Source: Escherichia phage vB_EcoM_SHAK9454. From it: DNA of 39,471 nucleotides. Of the stretch, positions 1 to 16,514 are shown one piece after another. The stretch lies in sequence record OR594184; one strand, written 5' to 3'. Positions within the stretch are counted from its first letter, which is position 1. Every line of letters begins with the position of its first letter. Both the position numbers and the translations under genes were made by a program. Under the pieces are notes generated by a model. That model saw only the letters and a program-made list of their open reading frames with translations, was not told where the DNA came from and ran no database searches.

Positions 1-1731
1 ATGACTGCACGTATGAAGGAAGACTTCGTGTTCTTCATCTTCGTTCTCTGGAAAGCTCTTAGCCTTCCGGTTCCAACCCGCTGCCAGATAGATATGTGTA
101 AGAAGCTGGCTGCTGGGGATAATCGCCGCTTCATCCTTCAGGCGTTCCGTGGTATTGGCAAGTCGTTTCTGACCTGTGGTTTCGTGGTCTGGAAACTATG
201 GAACAACCCAGACTTGAAGTTCATGATTGTGTCGGCCTCAAAGGAACGAGCCGATGCTAACTCCATATTCATCAAGCGAATCATCGACCTCATGCCTCAG
301 CTTCAGGAACTCAAACCTAAGCAGGGACAGCGAGATGCGGTTATCAGCTTCGACGTTGGGCCAGCCAAGCCAGACCACTCACCTTCGGTTAAGTCCGTTG
401 GTATCACTGGTCAGTTGACTGGTAGTCGTGCTGACATCCTGATTGCCGATGACGTGGAGGTTCCAAACAACTCTGCTACTCAGGCTGCGAGAGACCGTCT
501 GTCAGAGCTTGTAAAAGAGTTCGACGCTATCCTGAAGCCGGGAGGTACAATCATCTATCTGGGCACTCCTCAGAACGAGATGACCCTGTACCGTGAGCTG
601 GAAGGTCGTGGGTACACCACTACTATCTGGCCCGCTCGTTATCCACGCGACAGGAAGGACTGGCAGTCTTACGGTGACCGTCTGGCTCCTATGCTTCAGG
701 CAGAGCTGGAAGAGGACCCTGAGTCCTTCTACTGGCGTCCTACCGATGAAGTACGATTCGATGATACAGACCTGAAGGAACGTGAGTTGTCCTATGGTAA
801 AGCTGGCTTCGCTCTACAGTTCATGCTTAACCCTAACCTGAGTGATGCCGAGAAGTATCCTCTGAAGCTCCGTGACCTTATCGTAGCAGACTTGGACCCA
901 GAGTCAAGCCCAATGGTCTACCAATGGTTGCCGAACCCTCAGAACAAGCGTGAGGACGTTCCTAACGTTGGACTCATGGGTGATTCCTACCATACGTATC
1001 AGACTGTAGGCTCTGCCTTCAGCGCGTACACTCAGAAGATTCTGGTCATTGACCCTAGTGGTCGTGGTAAGGATGAGACTGGCTACGCTGTTCTGTACCA
1101 GCTCAACGGCTACATCTTCGTGATGGAAGCTGGTGGTATGCGCGGTGGGTATGAGGACTCAACGCTGGAAGCACTGGCTAAGATTGGTCGTAAGTGGAAG
1201 GTCAACGAATACGTCATTGAGGGTAACTTCGGCGATGGTATGTACCTTGAGCTATTCAAGCCTGTAGCGGCCCGTATCCATCCTGCTGCTGTAACTGAAG
1301 TGAAGAGTAAGGGCCAGAAAGAACTCCGCATCTGTGACGTTCTGGAGCCTATCATGGGGTCTCACCGACTTATCGTTAACGCTGCTGCTATCGTCCAAGA
1401 CTACCAGTCGGCCTCTGATAAGGATGGTGTTCGTAACCCTATCTACTCTCTCTTCTACCAGATGACACGTATATCTCGCGAACGTGGAGCCTTGGCACAC
1501 GATGACCGACTTGATGCGCTGGCTATCGGTGTACAGTTCTTCGTTGAGTCTATGGCTAAGGATGCCAACAAAGGCGAACGTGAAGTAACTGAGGAGTGGC
1601 TGGAGGAACAGATGGAGAACCCACGGAAAGGCTTCGAGTCCATCCACACTGAGTTCTGGGACAATGGGGTCCGGGTAACTCACGATACGGACGACGAGCT
1701 GGGACTAGGGTCATACGTTACGTTCCACTAG
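1..1731 (+). CDS. Terminase large subunit (T7 gene 19-like), 3' portion; its 5' end is at 39439..39471 because the window is a rotated genome
   Basis: 576-aa ORF from window start; recalled T7 gp19 blocks ([57 protein letters not shown]); reading frame is continuous with the last 33 nt of the window. Confidence 0.95.
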
Positions 1732-1825
1732 CTGAATGAATAACTATAGGCGAAAGCTGCATCAATACGCAGTTAGTAACCTATGGTTACTACCAGTCTA
1801 ACCTACTGTTTTACAAGGAGTTTGG

Positions 1826-1848
1826 ACTTAACTATCACTATAGGGAAG
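1826..1848 (+). promoter_or_regulatory. Phage RNAP promoter (phiOR-like, near right genome end)
   Basis: ACTTAACTATCACTATAGGGAAGA; matches the 11-member consensus TAAACTATCACTATAGG, +1 G at 1843. Confidence 0.8.
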
Positions 1849-2028
1849 ACCCCCGGTTACTTATAGTATTACTGTAGTGAATATACATATGCAGACTTTA
1901 TGCAAGACCTTAGGAGGAAGACTTCGAGTTCTTACCTAAGGCTTGCACCGATGGAAGGAGGGTGATATTAATCATAATCCCTCCAATACAGATAGTCACC
2001 GACCATAGATACAGGAGGTATGTAGCAT

Positions 2029-2187
2029 ATGGCAAAGACCAAAGCTGTACTTAAAGCTCTGGCGACCAATCGAGCTACATACAGGTTTCTTGCTGCTGTT
2101 CTACTTGCTGCTGGCGCTACTGCTGGAAGTCAGTGGGTCGGGTGGGTCGAGACTCTCGTATGTTCTCTGGTCTCTCAGTGTAATTAA
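2029..2187 (+). CDS. Small hypothetical protein (52 aa), positionally like T7 gene 19.5
   Basis: ATG 2029 with AGGAGG 2013-2018 upstream; MAKTKAVLKALATNRATYRFLAAVLLAAGATAGSQWVGWVETLVCSLVSQCN, hydrophobic core; below the 60-aa cutoff of the ORF track. Confidence 0.4.
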   Translation: MAKTKAVLKALATNRATYRFLAAVLLAAGATAGSQWVGWVETLVCSLVSQCN

Positions 2188-2220
2188 CGCCGTAATGGTA
2201 ACAATCAACGAAAGCAAGAC

Positions 2221-2261
2221 CTAAGGTCAGTTAATAGCTGACGCTACTCTACTGACCTTAG
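2221..2261. repeat. Perfect 10-bp inverted repeat (CTAAGGTCAG / CTGACCTTAG) forming a hairpin near the right genome end
   Basis: Inverted repeat read directly: 2221-2230 and 2252-2261 with a 21-nt spacer. Confidence 0.6.
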
Positions 2262-2339
2262 CTACTGTAGTCAAGGACTTTAGGTAACACCTTAATAGAA
2301 GCTCACTTAGGGTCATCCTACTTATTGGTCTATCCTAGT

Positions 2340-2395
2340 GTCGCCTGACCTACGGTCCTTGACCTACAGTGGCTGTGGCCTACAGTAGTGACGAT
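2340..2395. repeat. Short CCTACAG-type repeats flanking the right terminal repeat
   Basis: gacctacgg / gacctacagtgg / gcctacagtagtg in close succession. Confidence 0.5.
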
Positions 2396-2423
2396 GAGTT
2401 TTGGACCAAAAGTTTGAGACCAC

Positions 2424-2616
2424 ATCTCACACTTCAAGAACCTCAAGTCTCCCCATAGGCCCTCTTTCAGTCCAGACCAAAGGCCCTACCCCTACCCGTG
2501 CCAGTCTATCATAAGGTTGGACAGATGGTCAAGACTTAAGGTCAACGATAGGCTGAGGCTATGGCTTAGGGAAGGACGATAGGTTGGGACTATGGGTCTT
2601 CTTTGAGTCTCTATCT
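2424..2616. repeat. Direct terminal repeat, right-end copy (193 bp)
   Basis: Identical to 2617..2809 by direct comparison; begins ATCTCACAC, similar to the T7 genome end TCTCACAG. Confidence 0.9.
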
Positions 2617-2809
2617 ATCTCACACTTCAAGAACCTCAAGTCTCCCCATAGGCCCTCTTTCAGTCCAGACCAAAGGCCCTACCCCTACCCGTGCCAGTCT
2701 ATCATAAGGTTGGACAGATGGTCAAGACTTAAGGTCAACGATAGGCTGAGGCTATGGCTTAGGGAAGGACGATAGGTTGGGACTATGGGTCTTCTTTGAG
2801 TCTCTATCT
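2617..2809. repeat. Direct terminal repeat, left-end copy (193 bp); genome left end
   Basis: Second tandem copy, offset exactly 193 bp from the first. Confidence 0.9.
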
Positions 2810-2960
2810 GTATAACCATAAGTCACAACCATAGGTCACAGCCTACCTCTCACAACCATAAGCCATAACCTACAGTCTCACTAACCTACAGTCTCACTAA
2901 CCTACAGTCTCAACCATAAGACACCAACACCTAAAGTCATAGACCTACAGTTAATAGACA
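2810..2960. repeat. Array of short direct repeats after the left terminal repeat
   Basis: AACCTACAGTCTCACT repeated about 3 times at 2867-2912; AACCATAAG at 2813, 2853, 2911; analogous to the T7 short repeats flanking its terminal repeat. Confidence 0.7.
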
Positions 2961-3062
2961 CAAGGCTATAGACTTAAGGTCTAAGACATGTTAGTCAAAG
3001 ACTATATCCTCTTACACCATGGGGCCGACGATAGCTTAATCAATATTATTTCAAATTACCTA

Positions 3063-3092
3063 TTGACTATAGGTCCAGACTATGGCCTAATA
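3063..3092 (+). promoter_or_regulatory. Possible host sigma70 early promoter (weak -10)
   Basis: TTGACT at 3063-3068 preceded by an AT-rich stretch; only poor -10 candidates (CCTAAT/CTAATA) 17-18 bp downstream. Confidence 0.25.
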
Positions 3093-3202
3093 GCTTCCGT
3101 CAACACGACACGGCAACAACCGGATAGTGAAGACGCCGGTCCGGTCCGGTTAAGTAGTCAGCCTGTAAGACATACGAACAACAGGCAACCGACAGAAAGT
3201 AG

Positions 3203-3232
3203 TTGACAGGCAGTAACGACTTAAAGTAATAT
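3203..3232 (+). promoter_or_regulatory. Candidate host sigma70 early promoter (A-promoter-like)
   Basis: TTGACA (3203-3208), 18-bp spacer, TAATAT (3227-3232); lies between the left terminal repeat and the first early gene. Confidence 0.45.
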
Positions 3233-3343
3233 GTACCACATCGAAACAACGGTGATGACCAACACTGAATGGTCTACCTGAAGTCCTCTGACTGAAGGGA
3301 ATGCTCTTTAACAATCTGGATAAACTCTTAATGTGCGCCGATA

Positions 3344-3400
3344 GCGACTAACTACAGGGCCTTTGAGTCTACATCTGAAGGCCCTGACTGATAGTCACTA
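3344..3400 (+). promoter_or_regulatory. RNase III-like processing hairpin (early family, copy 1)
   Basis: Imperfect hairpin GACTAACTACAGGGCC ... GGCCCTGACTGATAGTC; conserved CCTGACTGATAGTCACTAAC motif about 20 nt before the start codon. Confidence 0.45.
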
Positions 3401-3418
3401 ACTTAAAGGATGGACACT

Positions 3419-3664
3419 ATGAAACACTTAAGCACAATCACTAATCGCAATGAAGTATTCGTGAACACTAAAGGTTATGCGTGGATTCAGCTTAAAGAGA
3501 TGACAGGAGCGCGTCACCGTGTGGTAGTGCGCAAGGTATCAAGCAAGCAGTTCAGCAACTACAGCGTCGATACTGTGCGTATAGACAACGAGACATACCT
3601 GATAGACTCGCAGATAACCGTGAGTCCTACAGTGGGCGTCTCAGCTCCTTATTTCACTAACTGA
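3419..3664 (+). CDS. Hypothetical early protein (81 aa)
   Basis: ORF with AAGGA 3406-3410 eight nt before ATG 3419; the ATG at 3410 overlaps the RBS and is less likely. Confidence 0.6.
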   Translation: MKHLSTITNRNEVFVNTKGYAWIQLKEMTGARHRVVVRKVSSKQFSNYSVDTVRIDNETYLIDSQITVSPTVGVSAPYFTN

Positions 3665-3666
3665 GA

Positions 3667-3719
3667 GTGATTAACTACAGGTCGTTAGACTGATAGCGGC
3701 CTGACTGATAGTCACTAAC
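3667..3719 (+). promoter_or_regulatory. RNase III-like processing hairpin (early family, copy 2)
   Basis: AACTACAGG ... CCTGACTGATAGTCACTAAC motif upstream of the Ocr-like gene. Confidence 0.45.
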
Positions 3720-3747
3720 ACATAATTAACTTTGAGAGGATATAACT

Positions 3748-4251
3748 ATGGAACGTAATGCTAACGCATACTATGAGCTGCTGGCTACAACCGTTGAGGC
3801 ATTTATCGAGCGTATTCAGTACGACCACCTGACTCAAGATGACGACTACAGCGCTGCGCTGCATGAGGTCGTAGACGGTCAGGTTCCACACTATTACCAC
3901 GAGATTTTTACGGTGATGGCTGCTGATGGTATAGACAACGAGTTCGAAGACTCTGGGATGATACCTGAAACCAAGGACGTAACGCGTATCCTACAAGCTC
4001 GCATCTATGAGGCACTTTATAACGACGTGTCTAATAGCTTGGATGTAGTCTGGTTTGAGGATGAAGAGGCAGACGAAGAGGATGAATATTGGGTAGTTGA
4101 CGCTAAAACAGGCGCAATAATTGTGCAAGCTGTAGCTCTTGAGGTCGCTACTGCATGTGCCAATGTTAACTATGCGGCAGGTCGCCACCTGAAGGTGGAA
4201 GACATCAATGATAACGTAGTGTTCGACCCTGCGGCTGAGGACTGCGAGTGA
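3748..4251 (+). CDS. ocr: Ocr-like DNA-mimic anti-restriction protein (T7 gene 0.3-like) with a ~50-aa C-terminal extension
   Basis: VPHYYHEIFTVMAADGIDNEFEDSGMIPETKDVTRILQARIYE matches the recalled T7 Ocr core; acidic tail EDEEADEEDEYW; ORF continues ~50 codons beyond; strong RBS GAGAGGA. Confidence 0.8.
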   Translation: MERNANAYYELLATTVEAFIERIQYDHLTQDDDYSAALHEVVDGQVPHYYHEIFTVMAADGIDNEFEDSGMIPETKDVTRILQARIYEALYNDVSNSLDVVWFEDEEADEEDEYWVVDAKTGAIIVQAVALEVATACANVNYAAGRHLKVEDINDNVVFDPAAEDCE

Positions 4252-4396
4252 TGGTAACTTATGGCCTCTGCCAGCACCACGTCACTAACGCCCGGCTTAT
4301 GGTCAAGACCGGGCAGTTAGACCACGATTGGGCTATGCGTCTCTTGAAAGTGGTCTACAGGAGACGCAAGCGTATACACGACAGTTTACACGCTAA

Positions 4397-4447
4397 GTGA
4401 CAGACTACAGGTCATCAATGCTGGTGGCCTGACTGATAGTCATTAAC
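4397..4447 (+). promoter_or_regulatory. RNase III-like processing hairpin (early family, copy 3)
   Basis: AGACTACAGG ... CCTGACTGATAGTCATTAAC motif upstream of the ORF at 4464. Confidence 0.4.
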
Positions 4448-4463
4448 AACTGAGAGGGAAGAT

Positions 4464-4691
4464 ATGAACACAATCACTGGTGCCATAACCAAAGGTTTTC
4501 GAGCAATTTTCGGTGAAACGCAAGAAGTATGCACCAATCATAAATTCGTACTTTCTTGCGTAGCAGGTGACGAGTTTGACGGGTTCGATAAACTGGTGGT
4601 TTGCGACCATTGCGGACAAGAGGCTATCCAACACTCAAACGGTAAATTTGAATTAATAGACGATAGCCTTACAGAAGGAGACGGCGAGTAA
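4464..4691 (+). CDS. Hypothetical early protein (75 aa) with Cys pairs, possible zinc ribbon
   Basis: RBS GAGAGGGAAG then ATG; C-x-N-H ... C-x-x-x-x-x-x-x-x-x-x-x-x-x-x-CDHC arrangement; acidic C-terminus. Confidence 0.6.
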   Translation: MNTITGAITKGFRAIFGETQEVCTNHKFVLSCVAGDEFDGFDKLVVCDHCGQEAIQHSNGKFELIDDSLTEGDGE

Positions 4692-4823
4692 CCTAAATAA
4701 ACAGGAGAGAACCAAATCATAGCTTGACCATAACACTGACGTGATGGTACTGAGTGGTAGACGAGAGGTCATCGACTGATAGGTGGCCTCAAAGATTACC
4801 ACTTACATTGATAGGAGTTAACT

Positions 4824-4928
4824 ATGAGCACCGCAATCATCTGGACTATCTCAGGCTTCGTAGCGTGGGGAATGTTTACTCTAGTCTGCAAACTACCGGT
4901 CCTTACTCAACTGTTATGGGGCTTATGA
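4824..4928 (+). CDS. Small hydrophobic peptide (34 aa)
   Basis: AGGAG 4813-4817 six nt before ATG 4824; MSTAIIWTISGFVAWGMFTLVCKLPVLTQLLWGL; stop overlaps the next start (ATGA). Confidence 0.4.
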   Translation: MSTAIIWTISGFVAWGMFTLVCKLPVLTQLLWGL

Positions 4929-5128
4929 CTATGAGTATCGCACTATTGATAGCCATAGGCTATGGAATTATCGCCTACGTGCTGGTGAGAGACATCAACA
5001 AAGCGCGTAAAGTCTACAAATTCAAATATGTACGTCTGGGTAGCTGGACTGTACGTCAACCTAACGGACGATTCATGCGCAACTTAGCGAACGTCTGGGA
5101 TATAGCAACTCTTGGGAGCAAACTGTAA
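4925..5128 (+). CDS. Hypothetical small membrane protein (67 aa)
   Basis: ATG 4925 in frame with track ORF 4754..5128; N-terminal hydrophobic segment MTMSIALLIAIGYGIIAYVLV then basic tail; translationally coupled to neighbours. Confidence 0.5.
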   Translation: MTMSIALLIAIGYGIIAYVLVRDINKARKVYKFKYVRLGSWTVRQPNGRFMRNLANVWDIATLGSKL

Positions 5129-5454
5129 TGAACAAGTCATACGGGATTAATCTGGTACACTCTATGGACGCAGAAATGAACATGTTAAGCCTACTGGCTA
5201 CCGGGTATCGTCACGGAACGTCAAGTCACACCGCACGTCAACAGCAGGAGCGGGACCGTGTACTTCAGGCACGACTTCGGGCCGAGGGCCATAAGTACGA
5301 GCTGATGGGTCTGATATGTGGTGGACGACCAATAACCGACGATGGTAAACTTCTGGTATCAGGCTGGAAGGCGATAGACCAACGGTCATCCATCAAGCAC
5401 ACGACACATGGTGACTTCAGCCATCTTCACGCTAACCCACTGATATGCAAGTAA
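5128..5454 (+). CDS. Hypothetical early protein (108 aa) at the position where T7 has gene 0.7
   Basis: ORF whose ATG overlaps the upstream stop (TAATG); no kinase motifs seen. Confidence 0.6.
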   Translation: MNKSYGINLVHSMDAEMNMLSLLATGYRHGTSSHTARQQQERDRVLQARLRAEGHKYELMGLICGGRPITDDGKLLVSGWKAIDQRSSIKHTTHGDFSHLHANPLICK

Positions 5455-5459
5455 TTATG

Positions 5460-5482
5460 ACTTAACTATCACTATAGGACTC
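5460..5482 (+). promoter_or_regulatory. Phage RNAP promoter immediately upstream of the RNA polymerase gene
   Basis: ACTTAACTATCACTATAGGACTC, +1 G at 5477; leader 5477-5551 contains direct repeats AAGTGAAAGAC x2 and GACTTTAAGT x2. Confidence 0.75.
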
Positions 5483-5551
5483 AAGGTCTAAGACTCAAAG
5501 TGAAAGACCAAAGAGACTTTAAGTGAAAGACTAATAACAAGGACTTTAAGT

Positions 5552-8233
5552 ATGAGCGTCATCTCTATTGACAAACACGACTTCTCTGATGTGTCGAACG
5601 CCATTGAGCCGTTTAACCTGCTGGCTGACCACTACGGGCAAGACCTTGCAGTCAAACAGCTTCAGCTTGAGCATGAGGCATACACTGAAGGCGAGCGACG
5701 TTTCATCAAGAACCTTGAGCGGCAGACTGAGCGCGGGGAACTGGCAGACAATCAGGTCGCCAAGCCTTTGATGCAGACTCTGGTCCCTAAGATTGCGCAA
5801 GCCGTCAGGGAGTGGCACGAAGGCCAAGACGGGAAGCTGTCAACCTCTCGTCCGAGTGTAGCGTTCACCATGTTGAGCACTGAAGAGAAGGCCGTAAAGG
5901 AACGATCTCTGCGCATCTCCTGTGAGTCTGCTGCGGTTATCGTACTGAAGGTCATACTCTCCAAGCTGGTCAAGCCTGAAGGGATCCCGATTACACCTAT
6001 GGCCTCAGCGATAGGTCGCACACTTGAGGACGAAATCCGCTTCGGTCGCATCCGTGACAAAGAGAAAGAGCACTTCAAGAAGGCGATAGCTGATAACCTG
6101 AATAAGCGGGCCGGGGCGTCATATAAGAAAGCCTACATGCAAGCGGTCGAGGCGTCCATGCTGGAGCAAGGCCAACTGGAAGATGCGTGGGGGACTTGGA
6201 GTCCTACAGAGGCCGTCCACGTTGGCATCAAGATGCTCGAGATTGTCATCCAGTCAACACAACTGGTCGAGCTTAAGCGGTACGGTGCTGGTAATGCAGC
6301 GGCTGACGTAGAGATGGTCCACCTGTCAGACTTCTGGGTCAAGAAGATGGCACAACGAGGATTCAGCCTTGCGGGTATCGCCCCAGTCTACCAGCCTTGC
6401 GTCGTCCCACCTAAGCCGTGGACTGGTGTCGTAGGTGGTGGGTACTGGGCCAAAGGTCGCAGACCGTTACCATTGATTCGCTTAGGGTCTAAGTCTGCGG
6501 TAGCACGTTATGAAGACGTATACATGCCTGAAGTCTATGACGCTGTGAATATCATCCAGAATACACCTTGGAAAGTGAACAAGAAGGTATTGGACGTGGT
6601 GAACATGGTCGAGAAGCTGAACAACACGCCTATTGATGACATCCCTCAGATGGAACCGCTGAAGCCTGAGGACTATGCTGGTGAAACCGAGGAGGAACTC
6701 AAGGCATGGAAGAAGGCTGCTGCTGGTATCTATCGCCGCGAGAAGGCCAGACAGTCACGCAGATTATCGCTGAACTTTATCGTTAACCAAGCAAACAAGT
6801 TCTCTCAGTTCAAGGCCATCTGGTTCCCGTACAACATGGATTGGCGAGGTCGTGTCTACGCTGTGCCGATGTTCAACCCTCAGGGTAACGACATGCAAAA
6901 GGGTCTTCTGACTCTGGCAGTCGGTAAGCCTATTGGTGCTGATGGTTTCAAATGGCTGAAGGTTCACGGTGCAAACTGCGCGGGTGTCGATAAAGTCACC
7001 TTCGAGGAGCGTATCAAGTGGGTGGAAGATAACCACGACAACATCATGGCTGCTGCCAAGGCACCGATGGATAGCATTGAGTGGTGGGGCAAGTTAGACT
7101 CTCCGTTCTGCTTCCTAGCGTTCTGCTTCGAGTATGCTGGCGTAATGCACCACGGCTTGTCTTACTCCTGCTCGCTGCCGATAGCGTTCGATGGGTCCTG
7201 CTCTGGGATTCAGCACTTCAGCGCTATGCTTCGTGACCACATCGGTGGACATGCAGTAAACCTGACGCCATCCGGTAAGGTCCAAGACATCTACCGCATT
7301 GTGTCTGACCGCATTGAGGAGCAGCTTAAAGTACTGCTGATTAACGGCACTGACAACGAGATGGTCACTCACGAGGATAAGAAAACTGGTGAGATTACCG
7401 AACGTATCAAGCTGGGGACACGAGAGCTGGCCCGTCAGTGGCTGACATACGGTATGTCACGCAAGGTCACTAAGCGTTCAGTCATGACTCTGGCATACGG
7501 GTCGAAAGAGTACGGCTTCGCAGACCAAGTTTACGAGGACATCGTGATGCCAGCGATTGACTCAGGGTCTGGCGCTATGTTCACTGAACCAAGCCAAGCG
7601 TCTCGCTTCATGGCAAAGATGATTTGGGAAGCTGTGAGTGTGACAGTAGTTGCTGCGGTTGACGCGATGAAGTGGCTTCAAGGTGCTGCCAAGCTGCTGG
7701 CTGCTGAAGTGAAGGACAAGAAGACTGGAGAAATCCTGAAGCCTTGCCTTCCGGTACACTGGGTCACACCTGATGGTTTCCCTGTCTGGCAGGAATACCG
7801 CAAGAAGGACACCACTCGTCTGAACCTGATGTTCTTAGGGTCATTCAACCTTCAGCCTACCGTCAACAAAGGCACGAAGAAAGAGCTGGACAAGCACAAG
7901 CAGGAGTCAGGCATTAGCCCGAACTTCGTCCACTCACAAGATGGTAGCCACCTCCGCAAGACTGTAGTCCACACTCACCGAAAGTATGGCGTGATGTCAT
8001 TCGCAGTGATTCACGATAGCTTCGGGACCATCCCGGCTGACGCTGAGTATCTGTTCCGTGGAGTCCGTGAGACGATGGTAGAGACTTACCGCGATAACGA
8101 TGTGCTGCTTGACTTCTACGAGCAGTTTGAATACCAGCTTCACGAGAGCCAGCGCGACAAGTTGCCTGAGCTTCCGAAGAAAGGTAAACTGAATATCGAA
8201 GACATCTTGTCTTCAGACTTTGCATTCGCTTAA
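5552..8233 (+). CDS. Single-subunit DNA-dependent RNA polymerase (T7 gene 1-like)
   Basis: 893 aa; DGSCSGIQHFSAMLRD (motif A), HDSFGT (motif C), C-terminal DFAFA, specificity-loop region TRLNLMFLGSFNLQP. Confidence 0.98.
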   Translation: MSVISIDKHDFSDVSNAIEPFNLLADHYGQDLAVKQLQLEHEAYTEGERRFIKNLERQTERGELADNQVAKPLMQTLVPKIAQAVREWHEGQDGKLSTSRPSVAFTMLSTEEKAVKERSLRISCESAAVIVLKVILSKLVKPEGIPITPMASAIGRTLEDEIRFGRIRDKEKEHFKKAIADNLNKRAGASYKKAYMQAVEASMLEQGQLEDAWGTWSPTEAVHVGIKMLEIVIQSTQLVELKRYGAGNAAADVEMVHLSDFWVKKMAQRGFSLAGIAPVYQPCVVPPKPWTGVVGGGYWAKGRRPLPLIRLGSKSAVARYEDVYMPEVYDAVNIIQNTPWKVNKKVLDVVNMVEKLNNTPIDDIPQMEPLKPEDYAGETEEELKAWKKAAAGIYRREKARQSRRLSLNFIVNQANKFSQFKAIWFPYNMDWRGRVYAVPMFNPQGNDMQKGLLTLAVGKPIGADGFKWLKVHGANCAGVDKVTFEERIKWVEDNHDNIMAAAKAPMDSIEWWGKLDSPFCFLAFCFEYAGVMHHGLSYSCSLPIAFDGSCSGIQHFSAMLRDHIGGHAVNLTPSGKVQDIYRIVSDRIEEQLKVLLINGTDNEMVTHEDKKTGEITERIKLGTRELARQWLTYGMSRKVTKRSVMTLAYGSKEYGFADQVYEDIVMPAIDSGSGAMFTEPSQASRFMAKMIWEAVSVTVVAAVDAMKWLQGAAKLLAAEVKDKKTGEILKPCLPVHWVTPDGFPVWQEYRKKDTTRLNLMFLGSFNLQPTVNKGTKKELDKHKQESGISPNFVHSQDGSHLRKTVVHTHRKYGVMSFAVIHDSFGTIPADAEYLFRGVRETMVETYRDNDVLLDFYEQFEYQLHESQRDKLPELPKKGKLNIEDILSSDFAFA

Positions 8234-8248
8234 CAGGAGAAGAAGTAT

Positions 8249-8479
8249 ATGTCAATGAAACTTGTAGTACACAACAGAGTATACAACGATGGGTCGGGAC
8301 GTTGCCATGTAGAGCTTACTTATAAGGATTTAGTCATTCTCCGAGACAGATTACAAGCAGGTGTGACTGGGTGGATTCAACCTAACGAGTACAGCCTTAT
8401 AGCTTCGATTGATGAAGTGCTTAACGCGTGGATGGAAGACGAGCGCACTCAGTATCCGTCATTCCCTATAATTAGATAA
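8249..8479 (+). CDS. Hypothetical protein (76 aa) immediately downstream of the RNAP gene
   Basis: AGGAG 8235-8239 then ATG 8249; no recognised motif. Confidence 0.55.
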   Translation: MSMKLVVHNRVYNDGSGRCHVELTYKDLVILRDRLQAGVTGWIQPNEYSLIASIDEVLNAWMEDERTQYPSFPIIR

Positions 8480-8489
8480 GGAGAGAGTT

Positions 8490-8705
8490 ATGAAATTTGC
8501 ACACAAGCATGCTGGAGTTAAGGGTGGGACTCAAATCGTGACCGTAACAGAACACAACGGCAATGGTCTGGTGAAGACCACGGTCATTCCTACCGAAATG
8601 TCAAAGCAGCTTAACGTCCCATTCAAGACCCTCGTCTATCTTGTGGAATCCAGCCACGAGAAATACCTGAAAGACGCAGTGACCAAGCTGGAGCAGACCA
8701 AATGA
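8490..8705 (+). CDS. Hypothetical protein (71 aa)
   Basis: TAAGGAGAGAG then ATG 8490; no recognised motif. Confidence 0.55.
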   Translation: MKFAHKHAGVKGGTQIVTVTEHNGNGLVKTTVIPTEMSKQLNVPFKTLVYLVESSHEKYLKDAVTKLEQTK

Positions 8706-8780
8706 CAGACCTACAGTTACTGGCCTTGTGGCTGGGAGCACTCGCAGTATTCACTTTAATCCCACGCAGAAGAGGTTAAC

Positions 8781-8803
8781 CCTAAACTATCACTATAGGA
8801 TTA
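8781..8803 (+). promoter_or_regulatory. Phage RNAP promoter (phi1.1-like)
   Basis: CCTAAACTATCACTATAGGATTAG, +1 G at 8798. Confidence 0.8.
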
Positions 8804-8846
8804 GACTCAAGGTCATGACTCAAAGTCGTGGCCTTCATGATTAACC
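8801..8846 (+). promoter_or_regulatory. RNase III-like hairpin (late family, R1.1-like position)
   Basis: TAGACTCAAGGTCAT ... GTGGCCTTCATGATTAAC; 8-bp stem AAGGTCAT/GTGGCCTT with G-U pairs; same motif at 16014 and 38895. Confidence 0.5.
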
Positions 8847-8873
8847 CTAACTCATTCAATCAGGAGCTACACC

Positions 8874-9053
8874 ATGTATCAGAACACTATCAACTTCGAG
8901 CGAATCCGTGAACGTCAGCAGACTGAAGATTATATTCCGAAGGGACGCAAGCTGAACAAGACCAAGCGTGGTGGAGGTGTCAAGGGTGCTTTCCGTAACG
9001 CTGAAGGTAAAGACTCTCTGGTCAACCAAGAGAAATACTTCGTAGGAGCATAA
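8874..9053 (+). CDS. T7 gene 1.1-like small basic protein (59 aa)
   Basis: CAGGAG then ATG 8874; KGRKLNKTKR matches the recalled T7 gp1.1 motif; below the track cutoff. Confidence 0.6.
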   Translation: MYQNTINFERIRERQQTEDYIPKGRKLNKTKRGGGVKGAFRNAEGKDSLVNQEKYFVGA

Positions 9054-11372: not shown

Positions 11373-11531
11373 ATGACTGACGTAGAGAAGAAATACATCG
11401 TGGAACTTGAGGGACGTACCCAGTCCTTCGAGGTTCCGTTGTACGCAAAGTCTCTTGAAGAGGCTACCCTGAAGTCCCAAGAGTATGAGGACGCTGGGTT
11501 TGTGGTCGGACGGATTCGCCCTGAGACCTAA
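11373..11531 (+). CDS. Host RNA polymerase inhibitor (T7 gene 2-like), 52 aa
   Basis: GGAAGGAG then ATG 11373; [14 protein letters not shown]...[10 protein letters not shown] matches recalled T7 Gp2 SFEVPIYAETLDEA...AGFEVTRVRP; below the track cutoff. Confidence 0.75.
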
Positions 11532-11589: not shown

Positions 11590-12288
11590 ATGGCTAAAGA
11601 GCAACTGAAGACTTTCACCACTCCGGTAGCTGGTATCGTTGAGCCTTACGCATGGCTGAACAAAGCAGACACCAAGTTTAACGAGCGTGGTGAGCATAAG
11701 GTTAACCTGACATTCGACCTGAGCAACCATAAGGTCCGTAAGATGATTGATGTCTTACAGAAGATTCACGACGATGCGTATGCAAAAGCACTCGCAGACC
11801 ACGAGAAGAACCCACCTCAGGTTCAGCGTGGCAAGAAGCCTATTGAACCACGAGAAGGCGACATGCCGTGGATTGAGAATGGTGACGGTACTGTTACCCT
11901 TAAGTTTAAATGCTTTGCGTCTTACCTGAAAGACGGCAAGTCCGAGCCTATCGTATTACGGTTCTACGACACCGATGCTAAACTCATCCGTGACGTCCCG
12001 AATATCTGCGCTGGGTCTAAGCTGAAGGTCAAGTTTAAAGTCCTGCCGTTCAAGTGGAACGCTGCGACTGGTGCAAGCGTTAAGCTTCAGCTTGAGTCCT
12101 GCCTTCTGGTAGAACTGAAGGAGTGGAAAGGCGATGGTGCTGGTGGCGATGGTGGCTGGGGTGATGATGAAGACCTTGGTACTGGCTACAAAGCGTCAAC
12201 CGTTGGTGACTTCGGTGACGATGACTTCGGTGACGATGGTTCCGAAGGTGGTGACGACTCCAACTCTGGTGGCGATTACGACTTCTAA
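11590..12288 (+). CDS. Single-stranded DNA-binding protein (T7 gene 2.5-like)
   Basis: 232 aa, same length as T7 gp2.5; acidic C-terminal tail ending DYDF; GKKP..EGDMP and VKLQLES blocks. Confidence 0.92.
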   Translation: MAKEQLKTFTTPVAGIVEPYAWLNKADTKFNERGEHKVNLTFDLSNHKVRKMIDVLQKIHDDAYAKALADHEKNPPQVQRGKKPIEPREGDMPWIENGDGTVTLKFKCFASYLKDGKSEPIVLRFYDTDAKLIRDVPNICAGSKLKVKFKVLPFKWNAATGASVKLQLESCLLVELKEWKGDGAGGDGGWGDDEDLGTGYKASTVGDFGDDDFGDDGSEGGDDSNSGGDYDF

Positions 12289-12734
12289 TGAAACTTAAAG
12301 AGAAACTGGAGGCTTACTCTGAGGTTTCTCCTAGTGGATGCTGGGAGTGGCAACTCTCCCGGTTTCCTGCTGGATATGGTCGAATATCAATAGGACGTCA
12401 GAAACAGGACTACGCTCACCGAGTTTCATACAGGGAGTACAAAGGTCCAATACCTGATGGATTGGTTGTTAGACATAAATGTGATAATCCCTGCTGCTGT
12501 AACCCTGAGCACCTTGAACTAGGTACGCAGAAGGACAACATGAGGGACTGCATGGAGCGAGGACGAAAGTCTAATCCTCCCGTATTCAAAGGAGAAGCTA
12601 ATCACAAGACTAAGCTGACCAAGGAAAACGTAGAGTTCATCTTAGAGTCTATGCTACCAGCTATAGAACTAGCCAAGATGTTTGGAGTCACACCAGCGGC
12701 TATAAACTGGAGGAGACAACATGGCTGGACGTAG
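12288..12734 (+). CDS. HNH homing endonuclease
   Basis: CWEW...GYGR...HRVSY...HKCDNPCCCNPEHLELGTQKDN motif; codon usage richer in ATA/AGA/AGG than neighbours. Confidence 0.8.
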   Translation: MKLKEKLEAYSEVSPSGCWEWQLSRFPAGYGRISIGRQKQDYAHRVSYREYKGPIPDGLVVRHKCDNPCCCNPEHLELGTQKDNMRDCMERGRKSNPPVFKGEANHKTKLTKENVEFILESMLPAIELAKMFGVTPAAINWRRQHGWT

Positions 12735-16082: not shown

Positions 16083-16514
16083 ATGAGGACTTGCAGTAGA
16101 TGTGGCTCTACAAAGGAGTCCACTGAGTTCAGGAAGACAAATGGGTGGTGCATATCCTGTGTTCGTGAGGATAATAGGTCGCGATATCATCGAAACAAAG
16201 GTACAGAGGCCGGTGAGGCGCATCGCTTATCTGCCCGTAAGTCTTGGCTTAAGAAAGCCTATGGTCTCACACTTGAGGAATATGACACTATGTTCGATAG
16301 TCAAAAGGGCAGATGCGCTATATGCTCAGACATTATCTTCAAGCATGGGTCTATTGAGAGTAAGAATAATGTAGCCCACGTTGACCATTGCCATGACTCG
16401 GGTATTGTTAGGGGATTGCTATGTGGTACATGTAATAGCGCACTTGGTAAGTTCGGTGACAAGGTAGCCGTGCTTAGGGCTGCTATAACGTACTTGGAGA
16501 AATATAATGTTTAA
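16083..16514 (+). CDS. Endonuclease VII-family (T4 gp49-like) nuclease with N-terminal zinc ribbon; homing-endonuclease-like insert
   Basis: CAIC...HVDHCHDSGIVRGLLCGTCNSALG matches the recalled T4 endonuclease VII motif HLDHDH..G.VRGLLC..CN; N-terminal CSRCGS...CISC; AT-rich codon usage. Confidence 0.8.
   Translation: MRTCSRCGSTKESTEFRKTNGWCISCVREDNRSRYHRNKGTEAGEAHRLSARKSWLKKAYGLTLEEYDTMFDSQKGRCAICSDIIFKHGSIESKNNVAHVDHCHDSGIVRGLLCGTCNSALGKFGDKVAVLRAAITYLEKYNV

Follow-up and report, generated by a model that had tools for sequence, protein, structure and literature searches.

A kinase-less early gene block of K1F type in Escherichia phage vB_EcoM_SHAK9454 and its accessory four-cysteine gene

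The stretch of 39,471 nucleotides analysed here, hereafter called the window, is the complete genome of the Kayfunavirus Escherichia phage vB_EcoM_SHAK9454 (OR594184). Its early region is very probably the class I gene block that is standard among K1F-like Kayfunavirus coliphages. The gene 0.7 kinase is genuinely absent from it, but this absence is ordinary because the K1F-like group has long been known to include kinase-less members. Most of the small early genes are conserved early genes and not substitutes for the kinase. Based on sequence comparisons, only one of them, which codes for a 75-residue protein with four Cys, looks like a swapped cassette.

Conserved and accessory genes of the early region

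The early gene order of the window is that of K1F gp0.1 to gp0.38, followed by gene 1, which codes for a T7-type RNA polymerase of 893 residues and forms the right edge of the region (5552..8233; + strand, like all the genes and promoters described below). K1F (AM084414, with genes 0.1, 0.2, 0.3, 0.35, 0.36, 0.37, 0.38 and 1) and LM33_P1 belong to the same genus and have the same gene order. Both share with the window ocr, a gp0.35/0.4-like gene, a 0.6-like gene (gp0.37), gp0.38 and a phage promoter 5' of gene 1, and gene 0.7 is missing from all three. The LM33_P1 sequence is ~98% identical to the window at the DNA level over positions 3300-5600, and its genes map one by one onto the whole window genome. 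K1F differs from the window by harbouring gp0.36 (55 residues, phrog_7319) in the place of the 75-residue cassette and the following 34-residue ORF.

Five ORFs, which code for 49, 75, 34, 67 and 108 residues, lie between the ocr and RNA polymerase genes. An earlier, sequence-only reading of this DNA had counted only four. The ORFs that it listed are present at 4464-4691 (75 residues), 4824-4928 (34 residues), 4925-5128 (67 residues) and 5128-5454 (108 residues), but it overlooked the fifth, of 49 residues, at 4251-4400. The block appears to mix conserved genes (the gp0.4 homolog, the T3-type gp0.6 and gp0.38) with accessory ones (those of the 75- and 34-residue proteins).

The ocr gene (gp0.3; 3748..4251) codes for a protein of 167 residues that matches Pfam ocr at 4.4e-28 and phrog_2568 at 1e-51. 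In close relatives of the phage, the 'protein kinase' labels that we considered as candidates proved to be carried by misannotated ocr homologs. This is a recurring database error, with ocr homologs so named in LM33_P1, IME177 and Vec13.

As judged from profile cross-matches and synteny, the overlooked 49-residue ORF (4251..4400) is a homolog of T7 gp0.4 (K1F gp0.35). It matches phrog_5058 (4e-25), phrog_7202 (4.9e-4) and phrog_25044 (1.4e-3), and T7 gp0.4 in turn matches phrog_7202, its own family (4.6e-33), phrog_25044 (9e-7) and phrog_5058 (9e-5). The two proteins share 39% identity, with a weak pairwise similarity (E ~0.2-0.3 within the window). A TGATG sequence joins the ocr stop to the start of the 49-residue ORF, and the T7 0.3/0.4 junction at 1278 is identical. 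Furthermore, the homolog of this ORF is named '0.4' in the CR44b annotation. T7 gp0.4 is an FtsZ inhibitor, and its homolog in the window is probably an FtsZ/cell-division inhibitor as well. Consistent with the presence of a gp0.4 homolog, FtsZ was found to be mislocalised and division blocked in K1F infection (PMC9372555).

The 34- and 67-residue products were described by the sequence-only reading as two small hydrophobic proteins, and each of them indeed contains one hydrophobic stretch of 19 residues (Kyte-Doolittle maxima of 1.82 and 2.39, respectively). In the 67-residue protein (4925..5128), this stretch corresponds to a predicted N-terminal hydrophobic helix (residues 3-21) and is combined with a basic tail (pI 10.8), which suggests a membrane-anchored basic protein. 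Based on profile and pairwise matches, this protein is a homolog of T3 gp0.6 (K1F gp0.37/'0.6'). It matches phrog_2385 at 2e-32, T3 gp0.6 falls in the same family at 9.1e-30, and BLASTP aligns the two proteins at 9e-10 with 40% identity. The gene is found in 214 phage records. T7 gp0.6 is an MreB inhibitor, but this target cannot be transferred to the 67-residue protein because homology between the T3-type gp0.6 and T7 gp0.6A could not be demonstrated. BLASTP between T3 gp0.6 and T7 gp0.6A yields only a 13-residue, C-terminal match (E 0.003), and T3-type gp0.6 and T7 gp0.6 (phrog_8393) belong to different PHROGs, with 22% identity in the alignment.

The gene of the 34-residue hydrophobic protein (4824..4928) is an accessory gene present in 33 phage records, with an invariable product length of 34 residues. 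Its start is preceded by TAGGAG, a feature conserved in comparison with vB_CtuP_B1. Like T7 0.5, which overlaps 0.6, this small hydrophobic ORF overlaps the next gene by ATGA. We nevertheless rejected it as a gp0.5 homolog, as BLASTP gave no alignment to T7 gp0.5, and only position and hydrophobicity are alike.

Since the 67-residue protein belongs to the T3 gp0.6 family and the 49-residue protein to the T7 gp0.4 family, the 0.4-0.6 set of T7 and T3 is partly retained in the window and not replaced. The class I genes of T7 and T3 (0.3, 0.4, 0.5, 0.6, 0.65 and 0.7, with the sites R0.3, R0.5 and R1) also resemble those of the window by the presence of ocr and by the overlap of gp0.4 with the ocr stop. 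T3 shares with the window its type of gp0.6. The 67- and 108-residue genes are core Kayfunavirus early genes, and they adjoin the polymerase gene in the kinase-carrying phages GW1 and Dev2 too. Thus, the proposal that four ORFs have replaced the kinase is mostly wrong, and only the 75-residue cassette resembles a swap.

ORF size alone is no evidence for a gene, as the first 9.5 kb of the window contain 105 ORFs of at least 25 residues. With short ORFs so plentiful by chance, one might argue that some or all of the small early ORFs are chance open frames within a non-coding leader. The 34-residue ORF has no PHROG family and is unannotated in several relatives, and an in-frame 5' extension of the 67-residue ORF (4754-5128) is likewise open. 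However, conservation is of the coding type in all four ORFs of 75, 34, 67 and 108 residues, with third-position bias and an excess of synonymous changes. Relative to the Kagunavirus copy, the codon changes of the 75-residue ORF are synonymous in 19 cases and non-synonymous in 5. Comparisons with GW1 gave 19 synonymous and 13 non-synonymous changes for the 67-residue ORF, and 20 and 16, respectively, for the 108-residue ORF. The substitutions between the 34-residue ORF and that of vB_CtuP_B1 are distributed 4/1/13 over the codon positions, and an alternative frame shows the reversed pattern, 13/4/1. Shine-Dalgarno-like motifs are found 5' of the start codons of the 75-, 34- and 108-residue ORFs, and ORF lengths and Shine-Dalgarno motifs are kept among relatives. 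That these ORFs are chance frames is therefore extremely improbable. None of the four has a family in Pfam or NCBIfam. All these ORFs have already been deposited as hypothetical proteins in dozens of near-identical genomes.

RNase III-type hairpins, promoters and predicted expression

We identified four RNase III-type hairpins in the early region. They are located at 3340-3403, at 3663..3720 (5' of ocr and R0.3-like), at 4393..4448 (R0.5-like, at the left edge of the 75-residue cassette) and at 4750..4810 (at the right edge of the cassette and the start of a three-gene unit), the last three on the + strand. The four hairpins align with the annotated T3 sites R0.3, R0.5, R1 and R1.1. Their consensus consists of a lower stem, an internal loop and an upper stem, with compensatory changes in 13 of the 20 pairs. 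The fold z-scores range from -2.0 to -3.6, with -3.6 for the hairpin 5' of ocr and -3.4 for that at 4750..4810. Given their homology to the hairpins of T7 and T3, the four are T7/T3-type RNase III processing sites at which cleavage is predicted. An Rfam scan of positions 1700-9000 gave no match; Rfam has no family for T7/T3-type RNase III sites.

A candidate host sigma-70 early promoter (TTGACA, 18 nt, TAATAT) was detected at 3203..3232 by a consensus scan only, with 10 of 12 matches. The phage RNA polymerase promoter consensus (TTAACTATCACTATAGGA) occurs just 5' of gene 1 (5462..5479). This consensus occurs 10 times in the window, where chance would predict 0.03 copies. The copy before gene 1 has kept its position in K1F, JSS1, LM33_P1 and IME177, and the CR44b record annotates a predicted promoter before gene 1. 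In contrast, no phage promoter is annotated at this location in the T7 and T3 records.

We infer the early expression and processing of the region from homology to T7 and T3. By analogy with these phages, the host RNA polymerase would transcribe genes 0.1 to 1 rightwards after DNA entry, and RNase III would cut the transcript at the hairpins, to yield RNAs for 0.2, for ocr with the gp0.4-like gene, for the 75-residue protein, for the 34-residue protein with the gp0.6-like gene and gp0.38, and for gene 1. In the three-gene unit, overlapping stop and start codons, ATGA at 4925-4928 and TAATG at 5126-5130, may couple the translation of the 34-residue protein, the gp0.6-like protein and gp0.38. 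The sequence-only reading had correctly noted these overlaps but had described a coupled cluster of four ORFs. Coupling is limited to the last three, because 132 nt with an RNase III-type hairpin divide the 75-residue ORF, which is separate, from the 34-residue ORF.

The missing kinase and the gp0.38 family

The six-frame translation of the whole window contains no T7 gp0.7 homolog, as the sequence-only reading had proposed. The best E value was ~2 in tblastn and phmmer searches with T7 gp0.7, and 1.2 in a search of all six frames with an HMM of the T7, T3 and GW1 kinases. As a positive control, a model of the T7 and T3 kinases detected the GW1 locus at 6e-44. The four ORFs have no kinase match in Pfam, PHROGs or NCBIfam, and the searches of Pfam and PHROGs returned none when run with the early ORFs and with the other ORFs of the window that had no assignment. 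All ORFs of at least 200 residues correspond to known T7-like genes that do not code for kinases. The LM33_P1 annotation agrees with a missing T7-type kinase.

This kinase-less, K1F-type layout is already known from the K1F records, as both public records (2/2) of this type phage display it. These records have shown a T7-like phage devoid of gene 0.7 for years, and the early block as originally described thus matters little. Other members of the genus, namely Cronobacter phages Dev2 and GW1, Shigella phage SFPH2, Escherichia phage IMM-002, Citrobacter phage CR8 and others, code for a 244-residue, kinase-only homolog of the T7 kinase, which matches phrog_15752 at 4.5e-114 and phrog_2828 at 3e-53. 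In ~44 records, the kinase is at least 80% identical to that of GW1. Since so many related records carry this short kinase, we consider it an accessory gene in Kayfunavirus. In the carriers, it sits upstream of the same pair of 0.6-like and 108-residue genes that precedes gene 1 in the window, with the order kinase, 0.6-like gene, 108-residue gene and gene 1 in GW1. The hairpins are also the same, but these phages have no 75-residue gene. GW1 further differs by a SAMase in the place of ocr. Thus, the T7-type kinase is optional in the genus, and the K1F/LM33_P1 lineage simply does not carry it. Because it is optional inside a single genus, nature offers Kayfunavirus phages with and without the kinase for comparison. 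Escherichia phage JSS1, which is kinase-less, should be distinguished from Salmonella phage JSS1, another phage, whose kinase JSS1_004 was studied.

For T7 growth on laboratory strains, gp0.7 is dispensable. The claim that host takeover must differ in this phage therefore does not follow, given also that the kinase is accessory in the genus and that gp2, the inhibitor of host RNA polymerase, is kept (11373..11531; Pfam RNA_pol_inhib, 3.9e-20). Without gp0.7, host transcription shutoff would be expected to depend on gp2.

As a possible footprint of kinase presence, we compared the fraction of Ser, Thr and Tyr residues in the early proteins other than gp1, which is 0.166 for the window, 0.168 for K1F, 0.166 for GW1, 0.121 for T7 and 0.117 for T3, in what is a small sample. 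In this five-phage comparison GW1, though kinase-carrying, is not depleted in these residues.

T7 and T3 also differ from the window in that they have the gp0.7 kinase/shutoff protein where the window has gp0.38, and the two are not detectably related. The 108-residue basic protein (5128..5454) is, by its match to phrog_7066 (2e-41), a member of the K1F gp0.38 family (named '0.71' in CR8 and '0.42' in CR44b). This family is found in 221 phage records. Among 1.84 billion proteins, it has 14 representatives at 50% identity, and its 144 homolog clusters are mostly on contigs of ~40 kb. The conserved core encompasses approximately residues 25-108, with an invariant C-terminal motif, GDFSHL...NPLI.K. 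The gene is directly 5' of gene 1 in K1F, GW1, JSS1 and the Pifdecavirus Keeri (Pseudomonas).

This location could suggest that gp0.38 corresponds, as a separate protein, to the host shutoff (SO) domain at the C-terminus of T7 gp0.7. In both Kayfunavirus and Pifdecavirus, the gp0.38 gene closes the early block just before gene 1, at the position taken by the SO domain in T7, and its product is small and basic (pI 9.3). Furthermore, the 244-residue GW1 kinase is devoid of the SO part of gp0.7, as its match to the phrog_2828 gp0.7 profile is limited to positions 45-225 of 366. If correct, this hypothesis would explain both the kinase-only kinases of Kayfunavirus and the position of gp0.38 before gene 1. 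However, hhalign of the gp0.38 family against the SO-domain alignment gave a probability of 0.6%, in a test of limited power, as the two alignments are shallow; the SO-domain profile is shallow because a word-indexed search with this domain returned only fragments. In addition, gp0.38 has no phrog_2828 match, a profile search of 1.84 billion proteins yielded no protein of gp0.7 length, and Foldseek searches of viral models gave family members only. A detached gp0.7 shutoff domain is thus rejected by hhalign at this sensitivity, and we consider it very unlikely. The structure predictions suggested along with the sequence-only reading were performed for the 108- and 75-residue proteins, and the AlphaFold2 models have mean pLDDT values of 56.2 and 54.7, respectively, too low to interpret. 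With the low-confidence gp0.38 model, Foldseek retrieved no BFVD entries beyond the gp0.38 family and had no match in the PDB, and sequence-profile searches of the PDB were likewise without a match. As a family always encoded beside the polymerase gene, in two genera, gp0.38 is a cheap candidate for functional screens.

The 75-residue gene and its cassette

The 75-residue acidic protein (4464..4691; phrog_32657, 1.7e-53) is the Cys protein of the sequence-only reading, with Cys23, Cys32, Cys47 and Cys50. Its accessory gene is present in 56 phage records divided between Kayfunavirus and Kagunavirus, and LM33_P1 codes for an identical protein. The family comprises only six clusters among 5.8 billion proteins, across which the four Cys residues and His26 are invariant. 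This conservation makes a zinc-binding fold possible. The AlphaFold2 model shows four short strands at low confidence; Foldseek against the PDB returned only noise (E >= 0.8), and the protein has no significant match to the PDB by sequence.

In Kagunavirus (Guernseyvirinae), the homologs are hypothetical early genes, such as vB_EcoS_XY1 gp58, which are 90-93% identical to the 75-residue gene at the protein level and 87% identical at the DNA level. The DNA similarity to vB_EcoS_XY1 is confined to positions 4444-4717 of the window and thus stops ~20-26 nt past the gene on both sides. The Kagunavirus copy opens a rightward operon beside a DicA-like repressor. It differs from that of the window by its unrelated siphovirus backbone and by the lack of RNase III hairpins around the gene.

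In comparison with IME177, K1F and JSS1, the blastn junctions delimit an insertion of ~300 bp in the window (4449..4749), which comprises the 75-residue cassette and the spacer to the second hairpin. T7 and T3 are devoid of this cassette as well. IME177 and K1F have a single hairpin, which aligns to both copies of the window, at 4393-4448 and 4750-4810. The duplicate hairpins that flank the cassette would result from its insertion by recombination at an RNase III site, the cassette being common to Kagunavirus siphoviruses. RNase III-site repeats appear to be places where early-gene cassettes are exchanged.

The 75-residue cassette occupies the same RNase III-bounded slot as the GW1 kinase cassette and is the only one to do so. 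In GW1, the hairpin-bounded slot 5' of the 0.6-like gene contains a 115-residue ORF and the kinase, and in the window it contains the 75-residue gene. The 75-residue protein, alone or with the 34-residue peptide, might therefore represent an alternative payload for the kinase cassette and serve anti-defence or host takeover, a role that kinase-carrying relatives would fill by phosphorylation. Purifying selection acts on the gene, which has passed between two genera of glycan-dependent coliphages that are unrelated to each other, and a broad anti-defence role is now ascribed to the T7 kinase (PMC13645617). Nevertheless, the protein resembles none of the known anti-defence or takeover proteins, and a common position is no proof of a common function. 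In addition, K1F, JSS1 and IME177 have neither the kinase nor the 75-residue gene, and the slot is thus able to hold other small genes or nothing. We regard such an interchangeable payload as unlikely. The broader proposal, that the 75-residue gene is a mobile cassette that crosses between Kagunavirus and Kayfunavirus at RNase III-site repeats and codes for a new zinc-binding anti-defence or takeover factor, is tentative and rather unlikely. If true, the hairpin slot would be an exchangeable counter-defence locus, as the 75-residue gene shares it with the kinase of the sister phages. The 75-residue Cys protein, common to siphoviruses, is also a cheap candidate for functional screens.

A kinase-less early region on the K1F plan

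Based on the sequence-only reading, the gene 0.7 kinase was absent and replaced by a coupled cluster of four small ORFs, implying a different mode of host takeover. Its sequence observation is largely correct if incomplete, and its interpretation is mostly not supported. No kinase was found anywhere in the window. T7 gp0.7, the kinase/host shutoff protein, had no match (tblastn, phmmer), and an HMM of the T7, T3 and GW1 kinases gave a best E-value of 1.2 against the six-frame translation; as a positive control, a T7 and T3 model recovered the kinase from the locus of Cronobacter phage GW1 (6e-44). The early ORFs and those differing from the kinase-less relative LM33_P1 yielded no kinase in Pfam, PHROGs or NCBIfam, and all ORFs of at least 200 aa are known T7-like replication, structural or packaging genes. 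Phages with and without the kinase could not be told apart by the Ser/Thr/Tyr content of their early proteins. The ‘protein kinase’ labels in LM33_P1 (LT594300, 1121-1624) and IME177 (MZ398247, 1636-2139) lie on a 167-aa ocr homologue (Pfam ocr, 4.4e-28). They are annotation errors that could mislead automated gene 0.7 checks. Vec13 apparently carries the same label.

The early region is matched by 242 phage records, with 98% identity over 2.3 kb around the four ORFs in LM33_P1, vB_EcoP_LNA5 and vB_EcoP-101118UKE1, all of them Kayfunavirus (K1F-like Studiervirinae). The layout is the already known K1F-type early region: it follows the gene order of K1F (AM084414), namely 0.1, 0.2, 0.3 (ocr), 0.35, 0.36, 0.37, 0.38 and 1, and gene 0.7 is likewise absent from the K1F RefSeq record.

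The T7-type kinase is optional within Kayfunavirus. Kayfunavirus GW1 codes for a 244-aa kinase-only gp0.7 homologue (phrog_15752, 4.5e-114; phrog_2828 covered only at positions 45-225 of 366), with a 0.6-like gene, gp0.38 (108 aa) and gene 1 next in order. Approximately 44 records, including Dev2, SFPH2 and IMM-002, have at least 80% identity to this kinase, and that of CR8 is 54% identical to it. As the 67- and 108-aa genes thus coexist with the kinase in these relatives, they cannot be its replacements. In laboratory hosts, T7 can do without gp0.7. Host transcription shutoff could rest on gp2, present at 11373-11531, whose role is described in PMC3709561 and PMC5569994. A broad anti-defence role was recently assigned to gp0.7 (PMC13645617).

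Coding signal and identity of the early ORFs

The four ORFs were all found in the sequence: 75 aa (4464-4691; Cys residues at 23, 32, 47 and 50), 34 aa (4824-4928), 67 aa (4925-5128) and 108 aa (5128-5454), with ATGA and TAATG stop/start overlaps. The hydrophobic stretches of the 34- and 67-aa products are each consistent with a membrane helix. Nevertheless, these four are not the only ORFs between ocr and the polymerase gene, since a fifth of 49 aa (4251-4400) overlaps the ocr stop codon. Nor are all four coupled, as 132 nt with a strong hairpin separate the 75-aa ORF from the 34-aa ORF.

Because short ORFs are frequent by chance, we looked for a coding signal. Synonymous and non-synonymous codon differences numbered 19 and 5 for the 75-aa ORF relative to its Kagunavirus copy, 19 and 13 for the 67-aa ORF relative to GW1, and 20 and 16 for the 108-aa ORF, also relative to GW1. 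Between the 34-aa ORF and vB_CtuP_B1, 4, 1 and 13 differences were found at codon positions 1, 2 and 3, a pattern reversed in the alternative open frame. Based on these substitution patterns, all four ORFs behave as genes under purifying selection. A GTG-started, in-frame extension of the 67-aa ORF from 4754 (4754-4823; 124 aa in total) spans the RNase III hairpin. The first 25 residues of the extended frame match phrog_36394 (3.9e-15), and thus some deposited genomes annotate it. The codon-position pattern, however, favours the overlapping 34-aa frame.

By homology, the 67-aa ORF can be assigned to gp0.37, of the T3 gp0.6 family (phrog_2385; BLASTP 9e-10). T7 gp0.6A is an MreB inhibitor; a link between the two is not established. 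The 34-aa ORF, present in only 33 records, resembles T7 gp0.5 solely in position, hydrophobicity and ATGA overlap with the next gene. The 49-aa ORF is assignable to gp0.35, a homologue of T7 gp0.4: each matches the other's PHROG family, they are 39% identical, and in both phages the gene overlaps the stop codon of ocr. FtsZ is inhibited by T7 gp0.4 (Kiro et al. 2013, cited by PMC9372555) and mislocalised on K1F infection (PMC9372555). The ocr homologue itself (3748-4251) has 167 residues versus 117 in T7. Residues 8-95 fall within the Pfam ocr domain, and the C-terminal extension of ~70 residues contains two cysteines and has no family assigned.

A hairpin-bounded cassette in the kinase slot

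Four intergenic RNase III-type hairpins (3340-3403, 3663-3720, 4393-4448 and 4750-4810) are copies of one element and fold better than shuffled controls. They align with the annotated T3 RNase III sites R0.3, R0.5, R1 and R1.1, and 13 of the 20 pairs of the common two-stem structure show compensatory changes. Two of them flank the 75-aa gene. IME177, K1F and JSS1 are devoid of this gene, and their single hairpin aligns to both window copies, indicating an insertion of ~300 bp (4449-4749) bounded by a duplicated hairpin.

The 75-aa ORF (phrog_32657) is rare, with six clusters among 5.8 billion proteins and 56 phage records. Its 87% DNA identity to the Kagunavirus siphovirus vB_EcoS_XY1 is confined to the gene and its ribosome-binding site (4444-4717), and its counterpart there leads an operon beside a DicA-like repressor. 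Both genera consist of E. coli phages that depend on glycans (PMC11990801), which makes co-infection plausible. In GW1, a 115-aa ORF and the kinase lie between the hairpins. Replacement thus stands for the 75-aa cassette in the narrow sense of position only, and falls for the 67- and 108-aa genes. AlphaFold2 models of the 75- and 108-aa proteins were both of low confidence, and fold and PDB searches returned nothing usable. What remains of interest is this cassette, shared with siphoviruses, and the gp0.38 family.

gp0.38, candidate promoters and probable genome ends

The 108-aa ORF is gp0.38 (phrog_7066), found in 221 phage records, yet represented by only 14 sequences at 50% identity in a search of 1.84 billion proteins. 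In Pseudomonas Pifdecavirus phages, too, it immediately precedes the polymerase gene. The family combines a variable N-terminus with a very conserved C-terminal core. The last ~40 residues (TDDGKLLVSGWKAIDQRS.IKHT..GDFSHLHANPLICK) are almost invariant, while the N-terminal halves of the same clusters differ considerably. This near-invariance, which in the window concerns the C-terminal 37 codons (5344-5454), might reflect protein function or a DNA or RNA element that overlaps the run-up to the gene 1 promoter. We also considered gp0.38 as a detached gp0.7 shutoff domain, which was unsupported (hhalign probability 0.6%, both profiles being shallow).

The promoter consensus of the phage RNA polymerase (T[TA]AACTATCACTATAGG[AG]) is matched perfectly at 5462-5479, in the gap that separates the 108-aa gene from gene 1, with other copies at 1828, 8783, 10449, 11529, 20160, 22999, 23986, 28769 and 36045. 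From this predicted promoter, the polymerase could transcribe its own gene. The site is conserved in K1F, JSS1, LM33_P1 and IME177 and annotated as predicted in CR44b, in contrast with the T7 and T3 records, where no phage promoter is annotated just upstream of gene 1. Judging from its T7 and T3 homologues, the early region would be transcribed by host RNA polymerase, with a candidate consensus-like sigma-70 promoter at 3203-3232, and RNase III would then cut at the hairpins. The resulting units would be 0.2, ocr with the gp0.4-like gene, the 75-aa gene, the 34-aa gene with the 0.6-like gene and gp0.38, and gene 1; overlapping codons would couple translation within the 34-/67-/108-aa unit.

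Every LM33_P1 gene could be mapped onto the window, which is one complete, circularly permuted genome; the large terminase gene is cut by the start of the window. A perfect 193-nt tandem duplication (2424-2616 and 2617-2809) is most likely made up of both direct terminal repeats in head-to-tail arrangement, placing the physical ends at 2616/2617. A 16-nt unit (CCTACAGTCTCACTAA-like) occurs three times in tandem at 2868-2915, just within the left end and downstream of the terminal repeat. Two ORFs with homing-endonuclease domains, at 12288-12734 (HNH_3, 2.5e-17) and 16083-16514 (Endonuclease_7, 1.4e-24), are in segments without LM33_P1 counterpart, the first located between the genes for SSB and endonuclease, the second immediately upstream of that for DNA polymerase. 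Lastly, the gp0.37 homologue of vB_EcoP-101118UKE1 (MZ234021, 3126-3245) is split in two, with an annotated length of 39 aa, and two CDS are annotated for the LM33_P1 RNA polymerase (NC_031937, 2925-5606). In the window both genes are unbroken, and the splits may be due to frameshifts or to sequencing errors in these relatives.
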